The notes under the pieces: model-generated
Told to the model about the DNA's origin: nothing
Seen by the model: the letters and a program-made list of their open reading frames with translations, nothing else
Databases searched by the model: none
Made by a program: the position numbers and the translations under genes
Shown: positions 1-6,011 of the stretch, one piece after another
Position numbering within the stretch: the stretch's first letter is position 1
How the letters are laid out: the number at the start of each line of letters is the position of its first letter
From: a virus
Length of the DNA stretch: 22,716 nucleotides
IMG/VR virus record: IMGVR_UViG_3300033121_002248
Reading direction: 5' to 3' (one strand)

Positions 1-2
1 GC

Positions 3-90
3 TCGAACCTGGTGCGCAAGAAGCCCGACTGGTACGGCCCGGTGTGGCCGGGCGTGCCGGACGACCTGCCCTACGTGTGGCCGACCTGAA
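3..90 (+). CDS. 3' end of an upstream gene (partial); translation ...SNLVRKKPDWYGPVWPGVPDDLPYVWPT*
   Basis: Frame 3 is open from the window edge to TGA at 88-90, with the high GC3 codon bias of the other + strand genes. A GAGGAGG ribosome-binding site for the next gene follows. Confidence 0.35.
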
Positions 91-115
91 CCTGTACATG
101 AGGAGGACGAAGCTG

Positions 116-859
116 ATGGAGTGGACGCGAGACGAGGCCGTGGCCGCGATGGTCGAGTACTGGACGAAGTGGGTGCGTGGGGAAGGCGACCCAGCCCTCG
201 CGCACCGCCCCACGCGGGACTGGAGTGCGTCGTGGCTCGCGCGTGTGGCGAATCGCGCGGAGGAGTTCGAGCGCGCACTGCGGCCCGAGGTCGAGAACGC
301 CTACGACTGTCGCGTGGGCTCGTGGGGTGCACAGCACTCCACGCTCTACAACGACTACCACCCGGAGTACGGGCTGGGGTGGGCCTGCCGCGTGGTGTGG
401 CCGAGCGAGCCAGCCGAGTACGACCTGTGGCTCTTCCCGCGCAAGACGCGCACGTGGTTCACCCCGGAGGGCGTGCCCATGGTGGACGAGTCGTGGCGCG
501 GACCGGGGCGAGAACTGCCGAAGAAGGAGGGACCGCAGTTCAAGCACGACTGCGAGGCGTGCATCTTCCTCGGGCGCTGGACCGAGCCCGAGAAGGACGG
601 GGTGCTGCGCGTGGAGTACGACCTCTACGTCTGCCCGCGGGACTGGATGGCGCGAGACGGGCAGCACACCTGCTGCGTCGCGCGGTACAGCAGCGACGGG
701 CCGCGCTACGCGTCGATGACGCTGTCGAACGAGCTCTGGGACGAGTCGCTGGCGGCGATCGGTGGACCGCGTAAGTCGATGTACCACTGCTACATCCCGG
801 CGCTGTGCAAGGCGTGGGAGCGCTGGTGCGGCTACCAAGTCAAGAAGGAGACGGGCTGA
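116..859 (+). CDS. hypothetical protein (248 aa), Cys/Trp-rich C-terminal half
   Basis: ORF 44..859; the preferred start is ATG 116, 8 nt after GAGGAGG (99-105). High GC3. Its stop overlaps the next start (ATGA). Confidence 0.55.
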   Translation: MEWTRDEAVAAMVEYWTKWVRGEGDPALAHRPTRDWSASWLARVANRAEEFERALRPEVENAYDCRVGSWGAQHSTLYNDYHPEYGLGWACRVVWPSEPAEYDLWLFPRKTRTWFTPEGVPMVDESWRGPGRELPKKEGPQFKHDCEACIFLGRWTEPEKDGVLRVEYDLYVCPRDWMARDGQHTCCVARYSSDGPRYASMTLSNELWDESLAAIGGPRKSMYHCYIPALCKAWERWCGYQVKKETG

Positions 860-1071
860 TGGACAACGAAGTGGTCGAGAAGGGCGCGAAGTGCGCGTGC
901 GGGCAGACGCTGCCGTGGCACCTGTTCGAGCTGGGCGGCGGGCTGCGGCACATCTGCAGCTGCGAGCGCGCGTACAAGGAGCAGGACGGCGTGGTGCGCC
1001 ACGTGGGCGCGGCGGTGACGGGCGCGACGCTCGTGCTGTCGGTGATGAGCAGGGAGGTGCCCAGTGGATGA
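859..1071 (+). CDS. small Cys-rich protein (CxC...CxC), putative zinc-ribbon
   Basis: ATG 859 overlaps the upstream TGA, with AAGGAG 7 nt upstream. The product contains CAC...CSC cysteine pairs. Confidence 0.5.
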   Translation: MDNEVVEKGAKCACGQTLPWHLFELGGGLRHICSCERAYKEQDGVVRHVGAAVTGATLVLSVMSREVPSG

Positions 1072-1537
1072 GCGACGGTTCTCAGACCTGCAGGACTTCC
1101 TGCTCGACGACGCGCGCTTCGCGGCCGCGCTCGACCTGCCCGGGTGGCGCCGCGAGGAGCGCGGCCCGCTGTGGCTGGCCGACTTCGATGTCGTGCTGAT
1201 CGACATCGTGTCGCAGGTGCAGTGGGCGAGCCGCGACCTGCGCCTGCGCTGGCCAGCGCAGGTGGTGGACGAGCGCCACGCGGCGTTCCAGTGCGTGTCC
1301 GAGACGTGGGGTGCCCCGAGCAGCTACGGGGCGGGCGGCTACCACCGCTTCCACGTGCAGGCGTGCGGTGGGGTGCGCATGAGCGCCCCGCACACGGGCA
1401 GCGGCAGGCAGAACGACGCGTCGGTGCTGGTGGCCCTGTGGCTCGACATGCCGACGTACAACGTGCGCTTTCGCGACGGCGCGGACGACGCGCGTCTGGT
1501 GCTCTTGAGCGAGATCGACGGTCGGTGCGCGTCGTGA
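1064..1537 (+). CDS. hypothetical protein (157 aa)
   Basis: GTG 1064 follows AGGGAGGTG. Coding-like GC3. The stop TGA at 1535-1537 overlaps ATG 1537. Confidence 0.5.
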   Translation: MDERRFSDLQDFLLDDARFAAALDLPGWRREERGPLWLADFDVVLIDIVSQVQWASRDLRLRWPAQVVDERHAAFQCVSETWGAPSSYGAGGYHRFHVQACGGVRMSAPHTGSGRQNDASVLVALWLDMPTYNVRFRDGADDARLVLLSEIDGRCAS

Positions 1538-1623
1538 TGCGGCGTGGACCGAACCTGCAGAACATCCCCATCCGCACGACGGAGGGCAGGCGCATCCGCG
1601 AGCTGTTCCTGCAGGACAGCAAT
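1537..1623 (+). pseudogene. remnant of a family-A (Pol I-like) DNA polymerase: encodes RRGPNLQNIPIRTTEGRRIRELF, the segment just upstream of motif A
   Basis: Near-identity to the conserved PolA segment [21 protein letters not shown] (E. coli Pol I; Taq [18 protein letters not shown]). No TGRLSS segment upstream and no DYSQIELR, KxxNFGxxYG or VHDE motifs downstream. GC3 drops after about 25 codons, and the region then carries the RBS of the next gene. Confidence 0.5.
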
Positions 1624-1728
1624 CCGCACCGCGAGTTGATGCGGGCGATGCAGAGTGCGCTTCCTCGACACGATGAACAAGCGCCGGTACGGCCGAGACG
1701 GCATGGAACCGAGAAGGAAGGTGGACAG

Positions 1729-2244
1729 ATGAACTGGAGTGACCTGCCGGACGAGGTCCGGCGCGCCTTCGGGCCCGTACTGCCCGGGCCGGACCCGCGC
1801 CCCATCGTCGAGGTGCAGTTCTTCGCGAAGGACGTCCCCGCCAACAGGGGCATGGCCGTCGTGAAGCACAAGCACGTCGCGTGGGACATCGTCTGGAACA
1901 GCTGGTGCGACCCGCGCCGCGAGATCCTGCGCGCCTGGCGCTCGAACCCCTGGAGGAAGCACCACACGCGCAACTACTGGGTGTGGTTCAGGCGCGACGA
2001 GCTGCGCACGAACGGCGGGCTGCTCTTCCAGATCGAGACCGACGGGCGGGTGGTCTGGGTGAACAGCGAGCGCGGGCTCATCGGGCGCTTCAGCCACAGC
2101 GGCGTGGACGTGCACAACGTGCCGGGTGAGCCCACCACCTGCGAGGACTGCTTCCCAGAGCCCGGCTGGGAGCGGTTCAAGGCCGGCATGCTGCGCGTGC
2201 ACGGCGTAGTCGTCGACGACAAGTACAAGCCGAAGGAGGCGTGA
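1729..2244 (+). CDS. hypothetical protein (171 aa), Trp-rich; in frame with the upstream PolA remnant
   Basis: ATG 1729 lies 4 nt after GAAGGAAGGTGG. High GC3. The frame is continuous from ATG 1537, so a 236-aa fusion protein cannot be excluded. Confidence 0.5.
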   Translation: MNWSDLPDEVRRAFGPVLPGPDPRPIVEVQFFAKDVPANRGMAVVKHKHVAWDIVWNSWCDPRREILRAWRSNPWRKHHTRNYWVWFRRDELRTNGGLLFQIETDGRVVWVNSERGLIGRFSHSGVDVHNVPGEPTTCEDCFPEPGWERFKAGMLRVHGVVVDDKYKPKEA

Positions 2245-2585
2245 TGGTGGACCTGACCGAGGAGAACTTCGACAAGTTCGTGCGCGTGCTCGCGCAGTTC
2301 AGCGTGGCGGGCTTCGTCGTGCACCTGACGGCGCGGCCCGGCACCGTCAAGAACGAGAGCGGTGCGGAGACCGTGGCCCGCATGCTGCGCGACGCCGGGC
2401 TGCCGCAGGAGCTGATGGGCCCGGTGGAGTCGAAGCGCCTGCTGCGTCACGGCGGGCGCGGGCGCTTCGAGTTGGCGTGGAACGAGGCCATCAAGCAGGC
2501 CGTGGCGCCGCTGCCACCCGAGCTGCAGATGCAGGCGCTCGAGCAGTTCACGGCCACGAGGGCGTGGCGGCAGGCTGTGTACTGA
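2244..2585 (+). CDS. hypothetical protein (113 aa)
   Basis: GAAGGAGG at 2233-2240 and a GTGATGGTG start cluster. Stop-start overlap with the next gene (ATGA at 2583-2587). Confidence 0.5.
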   Translation: MVDLTEENFDKFVRVLAQFSVAGFVVHLTARPGTVKNESGAETVARMLRDAGLPQELMGPVESKRLLRHGGRGRFELAWNEAIKQAVAPLPPELQMQALEQFTATRAWRQAVY

Positions 2586-2947
2586 TGGTGGAGACCATCA
2601 ACTGGCTGGCCGTCACCTTCGACTCTGCGTTCCTCTGGATCGGGGTGATGCTCGGCTACCTCATCGGCCACATCCGCGGCTCGCAGTGGGGGCTCGACCA
2701 CGTGCAGACGCTGGTGCGCGGGCGGAGCGAGGATGGGAAGAAGACCGTCTACGTGCGCCCCAGCAACCTCACGCAGCAGGAGCAGGCGGCGTGGGTGCAC
2801 GCCATCCAGGAGGTGGACCGCGACGCCACGCACAGGCAGATGCTCGGGCTCGAGACGTTCTGCTGCGTCGAGTGTGAGAAGGAGCCCACCTACGAGCTGC
2901 TCTGCTCGCTGTGCATCGCTGATGAGCGCCTGTTCGGGCATAAGTGA
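2585..2947 (+). CDS. small membrane protein (N-terminal TM helix AFLWIGVMLGYLIGHI), C-terminal CxxC..CxxC
   Basis: ATG 2585 overlaps the upstream stop. The hydrophobic N-terminus is evident in the translation. Its last codons (CAT AAG TGA) form a copy of the GGCATAAG motif. Confidence 0.5.
   Translation: MVETINWLAVTFDSAFLWIGVMLGYLIGHIRGSQWGLDHVQTLVRGRSEDGKKTVYVRPSNLTQQEQAAWVHAIQEVDRDATHRQMLGLETFCCVECEKEPTYELLCSLCIADERLFGHK
2937..2944 (+). promoter_or_regulatory. GGCATAAG motif copy 1 (extended GGGCATAAGTGAGGTACGGGC, shared with copy 2)
   Basis: One of 9 same-orientation copies of C/G-GGCATAAG-T/C lying 6-70 nt upstream of + strand start codons, followed by an RBS. See findings. Confidence 0.45.
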
Positions 2948-2951
2948 GGTA

Positions 2952-2972
2952 CGGGCAGTGCTTTCCTGCCCG
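2952..2972 (+). promoter_or_regulatory. stem-loop CGGGCAG-tgctttc-CTGCCCG in the leader of the 2991 gene
   Basis: Perfect 7-bp inverted repeat with a 7-nt loop, lying between the CATAAG motif and the GAGGTGA RBS. Confidence 0.3.
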
Positions 2973-2990
2973 CTACATCAGAGGTGACCC

Positions 2991-3449
2991 GTGAGTGAAA
3001 ACGACAAGGGCTTCGAGTTCCTGCTGAATCGCGACAGCGCCGGAGCGGTCCGGTACGAAGGGGCGATGCCGGAGAATGACGAGCTGCTCTACCTGGTGAA
3101 CATGTGGATCGCGCACGATCCGCGCTGCACACTCGTGCAGGTGGAGCTCATCCCCAGCGAGAAGTACGACGGGGGCAGGAGCGGCAAGATCTTCGTGCGC
3201 CTGCACAGCATGGGCACGCCCAGCTTCACCGAGCACGGCGACCTGCGCGTGCCGGAGAAGTCGATGGGCGAGCTGCGGAGCTGGAACAACGGCGGGGTGC
3301 TCGTGGCCCGCAACTACGCCACCGACGCGATGGCGCGCGCCTTCTTCACCAGTGAGCGCCTGCGCGACCGCGCCCACGCCGACCTCCGCGCGGTCGTGGG
3401 CAGCCTGAAGGAGGTCTTCACGGGCCTCCAGCCCAAGAAGGAGGACTGA
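2991..3449 (+). CDS. hypothetical protein (152 aa)
   Basis: GTG 2991 follows AGAGGTGA. High GC3. Ends TGA overlapping ATG 3449. Confidence 0.55.
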   Translation: MSENDKGFEFLLNRDSAGAVRYEGAMPENDELLYLVNMWIAHDPRCTLVQVELIPSEKYDGGRSGKIFVRLHSMGTPSFTEHGDLRVPEKSMGELRSWNNGGVLVARNYATDAMARAFFTSERLRDRAHADLRAVVGSLKEVFTGLQPKKED

Positions 3450-3820
3450 TGCTCCAGGTCGTGGACCAGCACGGGGAACAGCGGGGCGACGTCGCCGAAC
3501 TCTTCAAGGCGCGCGCGCTCGCGCGCTACGGCTATGAGCGCGCCGCCCTCAGGTACGCGGGGCGCCTCCAGGTCGTGGACGGCAACGAGCACCACGTCGA
3601 GTCGCGGCCAGAGGTGGAGGCGTGGCGGATGCAGCTCCACCACGACGTGCGCGCGCTGGCCCACGAGGGGGCGCAGGAGGCGCTGCGGAAGCGCGGCGCG
3701 CCGCTCCCGGACAACAAGGAGACGTTCCTCATCGAGTGGGGCGGGGAGACCTGGTACGTCCAGTTCTGGGACGGCGAGGTCTTCCTCGCCACCAGCGCGA
3801 CGGTGCGGGCGGGGTGGTAG
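3449..3820 (+). CDS. hypothetical protein (123 aa)
   Basis: ATG 3449 follows AAGAAGGAGG. Coding-like codon bias. Confidence 0.55.
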   Translation: MLQVVDQHGEQRGDVAELFKARALARYGYERAALRYAGRLQVVDGNEHHVESRPEVEAWRMQLHHDVRALAHEGAQEALRKRGAPLPDNKETFLIEWGGETWYVQFWDGEVFLATSATVRAGW

Positions 3821-3848
3821 TGGGTGGAGGGCGCCTGTGGCTCTCCCA

Positions 3849-3863
3849 TTAGCCCGGCATAAG
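3849..3863 (+). promoter_or_regulatory. TTAGCC-CGG-CATAAG motif copy 2
   Basis: ATTAGCCCGGCATAAGCGAGGTACGGGC lies 49 nt upstream of ATG 3912. Confidence 0.45.
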
Positions 3864-3911
3864 CGAGGTACGGGCGGCAAGACTGCTCGCAACTCCGAGG
3901 ACAACTACATC

Positions 3912-4745
3912 ATGGATTTCAGCTTCGACGAGTACATCAAGGCCGGCAAGGACGAGCGCGACCGCCGCTGGCCCCACACCAAGCTCCTGCTCAACCAGGA
4001 CGGCGACGGGGGCGAGCGCCTGTGGGTGCGCATCGTGGACACGAAGAACCACATCGCCATGCTCGACAACAGCCCGCTCGACCGCCGCTGGTGGTACGGC
4101 GACCTCGTCCACTTCAGCGGCAACCGCATCACCGAGCTGGTGAAGCGCACCTGGGACTCGCGCCTCGGCGTGATGTACCACTCCGCCCGGAACGAGGAGC
4201 AGGACCGCGCGCTGCGCCAGGAGATCTACGACCGCGTCGTGGCGTTCGGTGCGGCCCACGCGGACGTCAGCTTCTTCAGCCCGGGTGTGGGCTTCGTGCT
4301 CGTGCGCAGCAACACCGAGCGCAGCGTCACCACGTTGGAGGTCGCGCACGCCATCGGCCTCGTCGAGGCGGTCTTCGACGTGAGCGACATCACGCGCTTC
4401 AAGGAGGACGGCAAGTTCGACGTGGTGCGCCTGTTCCGCGGCCTCCCGCCGGTGAACGCCGTGCTGGGCGAGCACGAGATGCAGGGGGAGAAGGTGCAGC
4501 TCATCGCGCTGCGCTACCCGAACAACCGCCTGGCGGTGCAGGCGGTGGACGCGCGCAAGGAGCCGTACGCGAAGCTGTCGGTGAACGTGCCGGAGATCCC
4601 ACTCGAGCGCTGCGAGTTCATCGTCTCGCACGAGCTGGACGACGAGGACATCGCGGGCCTCATCGGGACCGGCATCTTCGCGGACACCGGGCGGCGGTGC
4701 GACTACGGCCACGTCCGCGGCGCGCGCATCCTGGCTGTGACCTGA
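3912..4745 (+). CDS. hypothetical protein (277 aa)
   Basis: ATG 3912 (MDFSFDEYIKAG...). High GC3. The annotated ORF 3534..4745 extends upstream through the promoter motif, so the internal ATG is preferred. Confidence 0.55.
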   Translation: MDFSFDEYIKAGKDERDRRWPHTKLLLNQDGDGGERLWVRIVDTKNHIAMLDNSPLDRRWWYGDLVHFSGNRITELVKRTWDSRLGVMYHSARNEEQDRALRQEIYDRVVAFGAAHADVSFFSPGVGFVLVRSNTERSVTTLEVAHAIGLVEAVFDVSDITRFKEDGKFDVVRLFRGLPPVNAVLGEHEMQGEKVQLIALRYPNNRLAVQAVDARKEPYAKLSVNVPEIPLERCEFIVSHELDDEDIAGLIGTGIFADTGRRCDYGHVRGARILAVT

Positions 4746-4768
4746 GACCTACAACCGGAGAGACCGAG

Positions 4769-4942
4769 ATGGTGTGCATCGAGATGAAGGGCAAGGACGG
4801 CTGGGAGCGCGTGCGCGGCAAGTACGCCAACGAGCGCGACGCGCAGAAGGCCATCGCGACGAAGAAGGAGGAGGCGGCCCGCGCGCGGCCGCCCCGCCCG
4901 GCGCCGGAGTTCCGCGTCGTGCCGTTCGAGAAGGATTCGTGA
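4769..4942 (+). CDS. small basic protein (57 aa)
   Basis: ATG 4769 follows GGAGAGACCGAG. Stop TGA overlaps GTG 4939. Confidence 0.4.
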   Translation: MVCIEMKGKDGWERVRGKYANERDAQKAIATKKEEAARARPPRPAPEFRVVPFEKDS

Positions 4943-5256
4943 GCGGCGCCGGCGCGCACGTGGACGAGGTGGCGCGCCTCGCCCTCGACGCGTTCGAGAA
5001 GCGCGGTCATACGCAGGTCGGGCGAGAGGAGCTCGGCGACCTGCAGGCGGTGGTGGCCGAGATGCTGCGCACGGCCGTGCGCTGTGGGAACCTCCCGCCC
5101 TACCGCACGATGGGCGGTGTCCGGGACGTGGAGGCGACAAGCGACGTGGAGGTCGTGTACCGTGGCGACGTGGTTCGCCTCGGGCTGGTCTTCTACACGG
5201 ACGCGGGTGCGCGGGAGAAGCGCTACTACCGGCGCGAGTTCCGAGGTGCAGCGTGA
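4939..5256 (+). CDS. hypothetical protein (about 105 aa)
   Basis: GTG 4939 (GAAGGAT upstream). In-frame coding bias up to TGA at 5254-5256. Confidence 0.4.
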   Translation: MSGAGAHVDEVARLALDAFEKRGHTQVGREELGDLQAVVAEMLRTAVRCGNLPPYRTMGGVRDVEATSDVEVVYRGDVVRLGLVFYTDAGAREKRYYRREFRGAA

Positions 5257-5549
5257 CCCTCCTCGCCTGGAGCAAGGAGCAGCCCTGGTGGCCGCACGTG
5301 CGGGGCCTCATCGAGTCGGGCCTGTACGTGCTCCTCCACCTGCCGGAACTCCCGCCGGTGGAAGAGCGGAAGCTCTTCCACCGACCGAGCGGTGGCTGTG
5401 TCGAGATCGCGCAGTGCCGCGCCGATTGCTGGCACATCGTGCTCGCCGCGGACCCCCACGAGATGGCGCGCGTGGTCCGCGAGAACAGCGTGGTGTCACC
5501 GCTCGGGCGACCGCGTGGGTGGATGCACACGACCGTCATCGACGAGTAG
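5253..5549 (+). CDS. hypothetical protein (98 aa)
   Basis: GTG 5253 overlaps the upstream stop (GTGA). Confidence 0.45.
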   Translation: MTLLAWSKEQPWWPHVRGLIESGLYVLLHLPELPPVEERKLFHRPSGGCVEIAQCRADCWHIVLAADPHEMARVVRENSVVSPLGRPRGWMHTTVIDE

Positions 5550-5569
5550 GCAGAACCGGCCTCCGCAGG

Positions 5570-5577
5570 GGCATAAG
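5570..5577 (+). promoter_or_regulatory. GGCATAAG motif copy 3
   Basis: GGGGCATAAGTAGAG lies 41 nt upstream of ATG 5618. Confidence 0.45.
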
Positions 5578-5617
5578 TAGAGTGGAACAGGGCACGCAGC
5601 CCTTCCGGAGGGAAGTG

Positions 5618-5953
5618 ATGCGACAGGGAGAGGTCGAACGCCGCGCCCGCGCGCGGGGCCTGGTCGTCCGTCGACAGCACGACGTGCTGGAGGCGGTCGC
5701 CCGGGTGTTCAGGAACTCCGGCGGGCCGCTCGACTTCGAGCAGGTGTCGCTGCGCGTGGACAGCACCACGGCGGCGGCCCTGTGCGAGTGGGGTGACCCG
5801 GCCCACCCCGACCTCGGGGTGGGCCTGCGCCGCGCGCTCGAGATGCTGGTCACGACCGGCCGAGTCGAGTGCGTGCGTGTGGTCGAACGAAGCGGCGCCA
5901 GCCGAGTCGCTGGGTCGAGCGTGCGCATGGTCTGGCGGGTTCTCGACAACTGA
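5618..5953 (+). CDS. hypothetical protein (111 aa), possibly a winged-helix-like DNA-binding protein
   Basis: ATG 5618 follows GGAGGGAAG. Product is basic and Arg-rich. The DNA-binding function is a guess only. Confidence 0.5.
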   Translation: MRQGEVERRARARGLVVRRQHDVLEAVARVFRNSGGPLDFEQVSLRVDSTTAAALCEWGDPAHPDLGVGLRRALEMLVTTGRVECVRVVERSGASRVAGSSVRMVWRVLDN

Positions 5954-5995
5954 GCGGGGAGTGCGTGGGGGCAGTCGCTCGCCCCGATTTACTTG

Positions 5996-6011
5996 TTAGC
6001 CCCGGCATAAG
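5996..6011 (+). promoter_or_regulatory. TTAGCC-CCGG-CATAAG motif copy 4
   Basis: TTAGCCCCGGCATAAGCGCCGTGGAGGACACCATG. The motif is 17 nt upstream of ATG 6028, and a GGAGGA RBS lies between them. Confidence 0.45.

Follow-up and report, generated by a model that had tools for sequence, protein, structure and literature searches.

A probable truncated copy of a small PolA-like phage gene at a mosaic junction in a metagenomic viral contig

We analyzed a stretch of viral DNA of 22,716 nucleotides (hereafter the window) and found that positions 1537-1654 are probably a truncated member of an annotated but unstudied family of phage micro-ORFs, with polA not having been lost at this locus. The segment would be a copy of a small, mobile phage gene (PHROG 12116, gp221-like) that gives way, after about codon 39, to 22 codons left from an unrelated gene and lying in another frame, its own stop being lost. 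What looked like a pseudogene scar would thereby become a more ordinary and better defined object, the truncated copy of a small accessory gene, situated where recombination left a junction, and as such it tells nothing about how the phage replicates.

Organization and coding signals of the locus

The features of the locus are collected in Table 1. The 157-aa gene that precedes the segment has GC contents of 0.73, 0.48 and 0.94 at the three codon positions and gave no match in Pfam and PHROG scans. As the first-pass annotation of this DNA had noted, the segment begins at the stop of this gene: the ATG at 1537 overlaps the TGA at 1535-1537, and such a TGATG stop/start overlap is the usual junction type in this phage, occurring at many real genes. 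Read in frame 1 from 1537, the DNA encodes MRRGPNLQNIPIRTTEGRRIRELFLQDSNPHRELMRAMQSALPRHDEQAPVRPRRHGTEKEGGQ, followed by the methionine of the 171-aa gene at 1729. This frame is open from 1144 to 2244, its first stop lying at 2242-2244; with no stop codon inside it, the stretch 1537-1728 extends the 171-aa gene upstream in the same frame, so that initiation at 1537 would give a protein of 235 aa. The earlier suggestion of an in-frame fusion spanning 1537..2244 is in this respect literally true of the sequence.

Table 1. Features in and around the PolA-like segment
Feature	Position	Strand	Basis or remark
Upstream 157-aa gene	1064..1537	+	52% identical to 160-aa protein of relatives L005-L010
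Probable truncated mini-PolA micro-ORF, ~39 codons, MRRGPNLQNIPIRTTEGRRIRELFLQDSNPHRELMRAMQ	1537..1654	+	Pfam, PHROG, phmmer, GC3, family alignment
Core family-A polymerase similarity, PNLQNIPIRTTEGRRIRELFL	1549..1611	+	tblastn with Klenow fragment
ATCCGC microhomology, breakpoint seen in another sample (L012, SRR12487046)	1622..1627		L012 junction
Remnant of 3' part of 167-aa-family gene, native frame 2, VRFLDTMNKRRYGRDGMEP...	1655..1720	+	tblastn, nucleotide identity, GC3 switch
Shine-Dalgarno region GAGAAGGAAGGTGG of 171-aa gene	1711..1728	+	direct reading, compared with other gene starts in the window
Conserved 171-aa gene (P0001)	1729..2244	+	in frame with 1537-1728; GC3 0.97

The coding signatures run unbroken across 1537, and the segment 1537..1654 has a GC3 of 0.93 in frame 1. 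The third-position GC signal of frame 1 persists to about nt 1650 and is followed by a frame-2 signal. The decay of codon bias reported previously thus holds insofar as the frame-1 signal ends, but it ends after 38 codons instead of 25 and gives way to the signal of another frame. Compared with other gene starts in the window, 1729 is preceded by a strong Shine-Dalgarno sequence whereas none was found before 1537, and gene callers place the start of the 171-aa gene at 1729, not at 1537. Furthermore, its homologues P0002-P0005 (66-74% identity) begin at the methionine equivalent to 1729, the exception being short, unrelated N-terminal extensions in P0004 and P0005. No promoter or terminator was found between 1200 and 2300, no Rfam family was detected in the window, and a fold z-score of -0.44 gave no sign of an RNA element. 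The window also carries SSB, PolX, GyrB and one protein shared only with huge phages of 462-735 kb, and the phage genome of which the contig forms part is probably much larger.

A single segment of a family-A DNA polymerase

When all six frames of the 22.7-kb window were searched by tblastn with the E. coli Klenow fragment, positions 1549-1611 matched E. coli Pol I residues about 673-693 with 15 identities in 21 residues (71%, E 2e-5). The runner-up, at E 0.13, was not polymerase-like, and the similarity is therefore far beyond chance. The same search returned no other polymerase-like match and no motif A, B or C in any of the six frames. Likewise, peptide residues 4-29 aligned with positions 125-150 of the 381-position Pfam profile DNA_pol_A (PF00476; E 1.2e-5), with a score of 24.9 bits that lies below the gathering cut-off of 34.3 bits and falls short of a whole domain. 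What the window holds is the motif 2 segment (PNLQNIP..GRRIR..F); the string RHDE at 1666-1677 sits in DNA native to the frame of another gene. Both the orphan PolA-like segment described in the first-pass annotation and its isolation from any other polymerase part are borne out by these searches.

A chance similarity or a chimeric assembly has a negligible likelihood. The segment comes from one metagenomic contig. Only one further assembly covers 1537-1621, Logan assembly L011 (SRR32380191), which is possibly from the same sample as the JGI contig and offers weak independent support. However, this assembly is identical across the region, the coding signatures do not break at 1537, and the match stands out both within the window and, at E 1.5e-6, against 1.84 billion proteins.

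The peptide heads a family of short phage ORFs

Dozens of short phage ORFs (53-130 aa) carry this peptide at their head, among them PHROG 12116, phiCbK gp221 and the metagenomic P0006, P0008, P0010, P0013 and others. A phmmer search of the 1.84 billion proteins aligned window residues 2-38 with P0006 at 72% identity and yielded the short ORFs P0006 (63 aa) and P0008 (54 aa). The PHROG 12116 profile matched the window peptide over positions 9-40 of 81 with an E value of 1.4e-5, which is weak in absolute terms owing to the short length; it also matched P0006, P0008 and an ORF of L013, with E values from 1e-5 to 3e-7 across matches. In tblastn, phiCbK-like gp221 aligned with window residues 5-42. 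A homologue search with the 40-aa peptide alone gave no match; the words it shares are probably too frequent for the word index, and the relatives were recovered instead by exhaustive HMMER searches and an alignment query.

Several features place the window copy within this family. It keeps all seven invariant columns (P5, Q8, N9, P11, R13, G17, F24) of a 43-sequence family alignment. An ORF of the mini type is expected to start within about 4-17 residues ahead of P-x-[LIM]-Q-N-I-P; the methionine at 1537 lies 4 residues before the motif, in the same MRRGPNLQ start as P0008 and P0028, and the basic residues and methionine directly upstream are a non-PolA feature common to the window and the minis. 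Beyond Pol I motif 2 and helix J, the window retains the family-specific FLQ and the next helix found in mini-ORFs, not the AF[VI]AP..DYSQIELR of real PolAs, and homology to the family ends at about residue 38-39 (~nt 1650). From the motif onward, a position-specific matrix of mini-ORFs outscored one of true PolAs by 7.4 bits (leave-one-out accuracy about 94-95%), and among the loci compared the best nucleotide match of the motif was 80% for mini-ORFs versus 77% for a true polA. The copy also shares the phage setting among small accessory or early genes. AlphaFold2 predicts helices at residues 15-25 and 30-40 of the window peptide and a disordered tail. Its role as the defining element of a distinct family of small phage ORFs is the very kind of result that the first-pass annotation had named as grounds for rejecting its reading as a polA relic. 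Two family traits are lacking: the motif-A-like helix D[YF]xx[LI]ExR[IL]L, which most members have 5-15 residues past the F, and a stand-alone ORF of 53-130 aa with its own stop.

A profile search brought together about 50 short ORFs whose ends are not those of PolA; several of them lie on contigs 40-500 kb long, and other members sit in phage-like contigs. A homologue of 78-83 aa, annotated 'Pol I DNA polymerase, palm domain', occurs in 24-26 phiCbK-like Caulobacter phages, where it is syntenic and follows a GcrA-like gene. Across the 23 motif codons of five unrelated members, pS reaches 0.50-1.05 versus a pN of 0.05-0.17. The pN/pS ratio between phiCbK gp221 and its BL57 counterpart is 0.38, below that of both neighbor genes. 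P0006 and P0013, the only closely related pair available, have a tail pN/pS of about 1 and motif codons identical in DNA, and the pair is therefore uninformative on selection at the motif. These sequence comparisons show a family spread over many unrelated phages in which the protein sequence of a motif of about 25 residues is conserved and synonymous sites are saturated. Many members consist of the motif and an arbitrary tail or cargo.

Searched against structures, the family profile hit only bacterial Pol I (E down to 4e-18), with which it aligns contiguously over a stretch that begins at motif 2 and includes motif A, for instance at residues 648-696 of M. smegmatis Pol I (E 4e-18). It seems probable that the family traces back to the palm of bacterial Pol I, specifically to its N-terminal half, comprising motif 2 (TGRLSS..PNLQNIP), helix J and mostly the motif-A strand and helix. 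The family signal lies in a very short and very conserved segment, which leaves a residual chance of separate captures from different polA genes. AlphaFold2 models were moderate (pLDDT 68 and 77, pTM below 0.4), and a Foldseek search of the phiCbK gp221 model against the PDB gave no match with E below 0.6, a result of little weight given the elongated shape and low pTM of the model. In the literature on PNLQNIP, on the palm domain of phiCbK and on proteins mimicking Pol I, our search turned up no study of the function of any member.

At locus L100 the mini-ORF follows an intact 813-aa phage PolA whose motif, TGRTSWREPNMQNPPRSGGFRECF, is divergent, while the mini-ORF carries the Pol I consensus. 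This divergence speaks against the mini-ORF being a duplicate of the phage's own polA. Complementation of a split polymerase was also rejected there, the PolA being complete through motifs 2, A, B and C.

We also weighed a neutral capture, by illegitimate recombination, of a piece of about 80 nt from the polA of the host or of a co-infecting phage, the likeness to small ORFs then being convergent. The region is demonstrably recombination-prone (see below), a GC3 of 0.93 is compatible with a high-GC host gene as well, and databases commonly contain broken pieces of true PolA. Nevertheless, no near-identical donor emerged, true polA genes being the poorer nucleotide match, and the window copy has non-PolA features in common with the minis on both sides of the motif. 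Moreover, a set of 41 loci drawn from 185,579 species-representative genomes contained no orphan, whereas several orphans occur in phage and metagenome contigs. We consider such a capture very unlikely.

Two origins involving mobile DNA found no support either. An attP core taken from a host gene is at odds with the absence of an integrase among the Pfam-scanned ORFs of the window and with the tight packing of the segment between coupled ORFs; among the loci compared, the best true polA is only 77% identical at the nucleotide level. As for an exon remnant of a homing endonuclease, intron or intein, the neighboring ORFs lack Pfam and PHROG matches, the window holds no Rfam family, and its only GIY-YIG ORF sits 8 kb away.

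The segment lies at a mosaic junction

A tblastn search of the window with the 167-aa protein of L005 matched only at 1655-1720, over residues 126-147 (77%, E 6.5e-7). At the nucleotide level this remnant is 91-93% identical over 56 nt to L005 positions 9671-9726 and L007 positions 4077-4132. Its 22 codons are out of frame if read from 1537, and frame 2 is closed upstream of it by a TGA at 1637-1639. A genuine deletion or recombination scar at about 1654/1655 thus joins the mini-ORF to the remnant of an unrelated 167-aa-family gene. Special conservation of the 56-nt patch at 1655-1710, as expected of a mobile or regulatory element, was discarded: the 171-aa gene has 85 such 56-nt windows of at least 91% identity with the same relatives, which makes the patch an ordinary remnant of a conserved gene.

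A second junction was seen in another sample. Contig L012 is 100% identical to window positions 1622-2951, and its first 24 nt together with ATCCGC equal window positions 3094-3123. The two parts are joined at ATCCGC such that the first 44 codons of a 152-aa gene replace the PolA motif in frame. The contig begins exactly 31 nt, the k-mer size, before the first distinguishing base. Homology of 1537-1732 to the 152-aa gene itself was rejected, the local alignment score being within the shuffled range. Together with the 1655-1720 remnant and sub-genic mosaics elsewhere, the L012 junction marks the region as recombination-prone, and sequence comparison places the window copy at a mosaic junction.

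In syntenic relatives the same flanking genes enclose either two genes, of 111 and 80 aa, or one of 357 aa, and neither polA nor a PolA-like peptide was found at this position; the PolA-like segment is missing from the closest relatives. Viral contigs searched with both flanking proteins yielded no related loci, and megablast of window positions 1-6000 against cultured and deposited phages gave no match.

These data bear on the central claim of the first-pass annotation, namely that the segment is the in situ fossil of a full polA deleted or replaced in this lineage. The segment is indeed an orphan, ultimately derived from PolA, in a 22.7-kb contig without a polymerase. However, the unrelated small genes between the same flanks in relatives bear no trace of PolA, let alone the intact polA that a synteny comparison was expected to reveal, and both the distance from methionine to motif, exactly as in P0008 and P0028, and what follows the motif (FLQ and a helix) agree with mini-ORFs. 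Furthermore, the lack of a replicative polymerase, which had been offered in support, is uninformative in 22.7 kb of a genome that is likely much larger. We therefore regard the fossil reading as highly improbable.

Possible function of the window copy

The window copy has no motif-A-like helix, Shine-Dalgarno sequence or stop, and the closest relatives lack it altogether; it may therefore be a dead remnant and not a working gene. It would then be debris of the deletion that also cut the 167-aa-family gene, with only the 171-aa protein made from the site at 1711-1728. The strong Shine-Dalgarno sequence before 1729, the preference of gene callers and all homologues for a start of that type, a tail made of the DNA of another gene out of frame, relatives that manage without the segment and the L012 variant in which the motif is wholly replaced are all in keeping with this. 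On the other hand, the start codon, all invariant residues and the GC3 are intact, the TGATG junction matches many real genes of the phage, and, since many members join the motif to a tail or cargo of no fixed kind, a truncated copy could still function. On these grounds a dead remnant appears somewhat unlikely.

If the truncated copy is instead expressed, a start at ATG 1537, coupled to the upstream TGA, would place the PolA-like peptide on the N-terminus of the 171-aa protein, to which the loss of the stop would fuse it. The conserved peptide may be the functional unit, mimicking the strand-loop-helix of host Pol I that binds the primer terminus. It could act as a competitive or dominant-negative microprotein on Pol I or DNA 3' ends, or as a docking tag that brings a variable C-terminal cargo to a Pol I-type site. 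We infer this mimic or docking role with low confidence. Unrelated phages keep a core of 25 residues at the consensus of bacterial Pol I and leave the rest free to vary, which would be the signature expected of such a peptide.

Extending the idea to the family is tentative, and we hold it to be unlikely: widespread phage microproteins of 50-130 residues, many in large or huge phages, would act by mimicry of host Pol I, and the window would hold such a module shuffled onto a new partner. Their core would be a near-perfect copy of motif 2 and helix J of Pol I, to which miniaturized motifs A, B or C or flanking zinc ribbons are often added. They might poison or titrate Pol I, or a factor or defense sensor that recognizes Pol I, or target cargo to 3' ends. 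If mimicry were true, it would represent a compact new route for phages to disrupt the DNA repair and replication of the host or to turn them to their own use, and would flag a systematic annotation error in which short ORFs are called 'DNA polymerase I'. The family is labeled 'DNA polymerase' or 'palm domain' in databases though its members are unable to be polymerases.

Comparison with known systems

Bacterial Pol I (PF00476; Klenow, Bst, Taq and M. smegmatis structures) is the source of the motif. The window holds about 6% of its polymerase domain and lacks the catalytic Asp, O-helix, motif C, thumb, fingers and exonuclease; the piece therefore cannot polymerize.

Among named phage proteins, phiCbK gp221 (AFU87053.1, 81 aa, 'putative Pol I DNA polymerase, palm domain') is likewise a short ORF that opens just before motif 2 (..PPIQNIPIRTEAGRQIKDGFLQ..) and lies among small genes. 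It shares FLQ and the next helix with the window, at about 47% identity over 38 residues. Unlike the window, gp221 keeps motif-A-like (IDFAEIEARILAEL) and motif-C-like (VHDEF) segments and its own stop, whereas the window has motif 2, helix J and one further helix, and then a foreign gene remnant leading into the next gene. The real replicative PolA of phiCbK is gp123, separate from gp221 (PMC3556154), and the phiCbK genome paper contains no discussion of the role of gp221.

The closest relatives of the window peptide are P0006 and P0013 (63-70 aa), which share RRGPNLQNIPIRTPEGRRIRD[AL]F with it, FLQ..H.E[LM]..AM falling within the P0006 match. In contrast to the window copy, they lie 9 nt downstream of an 813-aa phage PolA and have their own Shine-Dalgarno sequence, their own stop and a motif-A-like DALTEAEL tail.

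PolA genes that are split into pieces or work with small partners are known from the exo/pol split of T7-like phages and from CCPol-MP of SCCmec (PMC10201439). In those systems whole domains rebuild an enzyme, whereas the window piece is a sub-domain fragment of 25-50 residues. Furthermore, unlike in split polymerases, the co-resident PolA of a mini-ORF, where seen, is complete and has its own divergent motif.

A lone PolA-like segment follows the 157-aa gene

The ATG at position 1537 overlaps the TGA of the upstream 157-aa gene, forming the TGATG overlap that is the commonest gene junction type in this phage. From this ATG, frame 1 reads MRRGPNLQNIPIRTTEGRRIRELFLQDSNPHRELMRAMQSALPRHDEQAPVRPRRHGTEKEGGQ and continues stop-free into the Met (1729) of the conserved 171-aa gene. 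Residues 4-29 of the peptide aligned with positions 125-150 of the 381-position Pfam DNA_pol_A profile (E = 1.2e-5, under the gathering score). A six-frame tblastn search of the window with the E. coli Klenow fragment returned a single match at 1549-1611 (15 of 21 residues identical, E = 2e-5), and the whole 22.7 kb contained nothing similar to motif A, B or C. The similarity is therefore real and far beyond chance, in agreement with the first-pass annotation of an isolated polymerase segment. The decay of codon bias described there was also observed, but not after about 25 codons: the third-position GC signal of frame 1 persists to about nucleotide 1650, where a frame-2 signal takes over.

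No sign of a former polA at this position

The segment had been interpreted as the scar of a polA gene lost or replaced in this lineage. Contigs L001-L010 of relatives, on which homologues of the 171-aa protein share 66-74% identity with it, keep the flanking genes and differ at the position of the segment. In L001-L004 a 357-aa gene takes this place; in L005-L010 the homologues of the 157-aa and 171-aa genes are separated by two genes, one of 111 aa and an HTH-like one of 80 aa. Since PolA-like sequence is absent from all of L001-L010, they give no sign that polA ever occupied it, and synteny argues against the scar.

The lack of a replicative polymerase had also been taken to support a lost polA. 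The window (69% GC, nearly all genes on the + strand) encodes an SSB and the proteins listed in the table, including an 894-aa protein that, among 50,697 deposited phage records, matches only three uncultured huge phages (462-735 kb; 34% identity across 95% of the protein). The window therefore probably covers only a small part of a very large phage genome, which makes the absence of a replicative polymerase uninformative. At 78 aa, the ORF with the GIY-YIG match falls short of a full homing endonuclease; a 238-aa ORF without matches follows it.

Coordinates of features in the window and in related or mini-PolA-bearing contigs
Sequence	Coordinates	Strand	Feature
Window	116-205		Start of 247-aa gene; 93% identical to L005 3502-3591 and L006 5138-5227
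Window	1655-1720		Second orphan fragment of the interval, frame 2; 22 codons of 167-aa-family gene
Window	9793-10029	+	78-aa ORF, GIY-YIG domain (Pfam)
Window	13491-14072		PolX thumb-only ORF, 193 aa
Window	15470-18154	+	894-aa protein, Major Vault Protein shoulder domain (E = 1.8e-20) and SPFH/Band 7 domain
Window	18254-18697		LigT/2H-phosphoesterase-like ORF (weak match)
Window	19337-19786		Staphylococcal-nuclease-like ORF
Window	21743-22714		GyrB N-terminal part, cut by contig end
L002	15072-16163		AcrVA2-like gene
L005	3808-4167		Acb2/Tad1-hairpin gene
L005	9296-9799		167-aa-family gene, intact
L013	1145-2653		TnpB/OrfB-like protein, 502 aa
L013	3359-5737		Cas3-like HD-helicase, 792 aa
L098	2247-2891		PF09414 RNA ligase
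L100	5550-8213		PolA with mini-ORF in same frame (also L097, L101, L102)
L100	13020-13955		PF09414 RNA ligase
L103	5702-6004		PF09414 RNA ligase
L104	4566-5135		PF09414 RNA ligase
L106	5001-5315		P0116, one of the 96-115-aa forms (others: P0024, P0029, P0044, P0057, P0058, P0094)
L108	1-191		PF09414 RNA ligase
L108	5001-5201		P0081, one of the permuted 65-66-aa ORFs (others: P0045, P0059)

The interval is a patchwork

Downstream of the PolA-like segment, a 56-nt patch (1655-1710) shares 91-93% identity with an internal stretch in the 3' part of a 167-aa gene that is intact in L005 and L007 and has left no other trace in the window; this identity is the ordinary level for conserved genes common to these phages. 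Read in frame 2, which an upstream TGA (1637-1639) closes, the patch encodes VRFLDTMN[KR]RR..GMEP, and residues 126-147 of the 167-aa protein match the window only there (E = 6.5e-7). Its position agrees with the switch of codon signal to frame 2. The simplest reading of the sequence is that 1655-1720 would be a gene remnant left by deletion.

A contig from SRR12487046 (L012) is 100% identical to window 1622-2951. Upstream of ATCCGC (1622-1627) it carries the sequence of window 3094-3123 instead, so that the first 44 codons of a 152-aa gene replace the PolA motif, joined through the ATCCGC microhomology to 1628 onward and in frame with the 171-aa gene. The first base that distinguishes this contig lies 31 nt, exactly one k-mer, from its start; the alternative junction is therefore real and not a graph artefact.

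Sub-genic mosaicism also affects the first 30 residues of the 247-aa gene at 116-859. Their counterpart in L005 and L006 is unannotated and sits between Pyr_excise and Acb2/Tad1-like genes, and residues 140-242 resemble the N-terminus of a 357-aa protein in L001. Since the Acb2/Tad1-like and AcrVA2-like genes of relatives lie a few kb from homologues of the genes flanking the PolA-like segment, the region looks like an accessory or anti-defence island.

The peptide belongs to a family of phage micro-ORFs

The PolA-like peptide is not unique to the window. A degenerate DNA scan of IMG/VR for PNLQNIPIRTxEGRRIR found two contigs only, both with the same 66-aa ORF (MMGKTGDRKKGPNLQNIPIRTPEGRRIRDAFRRPLPHVDYATLERHLL...). 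A family-biased pattern, run against metagenome and genome collections, recovered 77 genuine full-length polA loci, a third contig with the 66-aa ORF (L025) and one further orphan (L052); the 41 loci that came from species-representative genomes included no orphan. The DNA of the 66-aa mini-ORF is identical on contigs of 54, 125 and 528 kb, and in L013 the TnpB/OrfB-like and Cas3-like genes lie within 1-3 kb of it.

When the 64-residue window peptide was compared exhaustively with 1.84 billion proteins by HMMER, two metagenomic micro-ORFs were identified, P0006 (63 aa, E = 1.5e-6, residues 2-38 aligned) and P0008 (54 aa, starting MRRGPNLQNIPIRT), beside one broken true PolA and one spurious LRR protein. 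The window peptide and the three small ORFs scanned (P0006, P0008 and the L013 ORF) all matched PHROG 12116 (81 positions, labelled 'DNA polymerase'), a family that tblastn located in 24-26 phiCbK-like Caulobacter phages among deposited phages. A profile search added about 50 short ORFs with non-PolA ends, beside about 67 broken true-PolA fragments. Among structures, only those of bacterial Pol I aligned with the family profile, in one contiguous stretch that spans motif 2 through motif A (E down to 4e-18).

Members comprise minimal forms (53-65 aa; motif 2 and D[YF]xxLExRxL), forms that combine the motif alone with an arbitrary tail or a longer cargo, zinc-ribbon-flanked forms, permuted forms and the gp221-like phiCbK type. 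In the permuted ORFs a motif-B region (DVHRKTAAEMFGVP..NFGTLYG) is fused before motif 2. In the 96-115-aa forms the motif is flanked by a zinc ribbon on its N-terminal side and a CHTCGC..ECEC cluster on its C-terminal side; the 85-aa P0017 combines motifs 2, A and B in miniaturised form. Of five unrelated metagenomic contexts inspected, four have a PF09414 RNA ligase gene no more than about 5 kb from the mini-ORF, and an indel distinguishing L103 from L104 puts a truncated ligase ORF directly against the mini-ORF.

Constraint appears to act on the motif

Across the 23 motif codons of five unrelated members, pS was 0.50-1.05 and pN 0.05-0.17. In the single closely related pair available, the motif codons were identical, hence uninformative, and the tails had a pN/pS of about 1. 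Constraint appears to act on the N-terminal motif and not on the tails.

On four contigs (L097, L100-L102) the mini-ORF is located 9 nt downstream of an intact 813-aa phage PolA. This PolA has its own, divergent motif (TGRTSWREPNMQNPPRSGGFRECF), whereas the mini-ORF is at the bacterial consensus (RRGPNLQNIPIRTPEGRRIRDLF); the mini-ORF is therefore neither a duplicate of the resident polymerase nor a missing piece of it. The PolA ends in TAA, and read-through would add a Pol I-consensus peptide to a polymerase with a divergent motif 2.

Unlike real PolAs, the minis carry Met and basic residues just upstream of the motif, and often PEG and FLQ. A PSSM contrast separated minis from true PolAs with 94-95% leave-one-out accuracy, approximately, and grouped the window peptide with the minis (+7.4 bits, scored from the motif onward only). 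Among the loci compared, the best nucleotide match of 1546-1611 was 80% to mini-ORFs and 77% to true polA.

The window copy is truncated and fused to a gene remnant

The window copy keeps the family start position and all invariant residues, and its homology to P0006 and phiCbK gp221 extends to residues 38-42. A Shine-Dalgarno sequence, a motif-A-like helix and a stop codon are missing; past codon 39 or so the copy reads through the out-of-frame remnant and then joins the 171-aa gene in frame. Given the family alignment, AlphaFold2 predicted helices at 15-25 and 30-40 and a disordered tail (mean pLDDT 68). Our conclusion is that a truncated mini-PolA micro-ORF occupies 1537-1654 and that a deletion fused it to a gene remnant. 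The fusion protein offered as an alternative in the first-pass annotation (1537-2244) is formally correct as a predicted product, and the peptide potentially tags the 171-aa protein; whether the copy is still expressed is close to a coin toss. Polymerisation is impossible for this copy and for the mini-ORFs. The feature is a degenerate new member of a family already in databases by annotation, and its moderate interest lies chiefly in that family.

The family is built on an element of about 25 residues at the host-type Pol I consensus, joined to tails or cargo that vary freely, and is located in accessory-gene regions. From this combination we infer, tentatively and with more doubt than confidence, a mimic or docking peptide modelled on the primer-terminus-binding strand-loop-helix of Pol I. 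Such a peptide might act on host Pol I, or on a factor recognising Pol I, by competition or poisoning; alternatively, it might deliver cargo to 3' ends. An RNA-level explanation, a promoter or terminator signal, a homing-endonuclease or intron remnant and an attP core were considered for the segment and found unsupported.

Comparison with phiCbK gp221

The phiCbK member, gp221 (81 aa, MGERLSKSEPPIQNIPIRTEAGRQIKDGFLQQMRAAEQAMAKIDFAEIEARILAELGPGYEASFDGRVHDEFSYTVRKVEP), is annotated as 'putative Pol I DNA polymerase, palm domain' and is undiscussed in the phiCbK genome paper, which describes a separate T7-like replicative polymerase (PMC3556154). A Foldseek search with its AlphaFold2 model, two helices and a beta-hairpin bearing VHDE (pLDDT 77), gave no match. 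Synteny of gp221 is kept between phiCbK and BL57, and its pN/pS between these orthologues (0.38) is lower than those of its neighbours (0.58 and 0.74). With the fingers removed, gp221 consists of motif 2, a motif-A-like segment and the motif-C-like VHDE.
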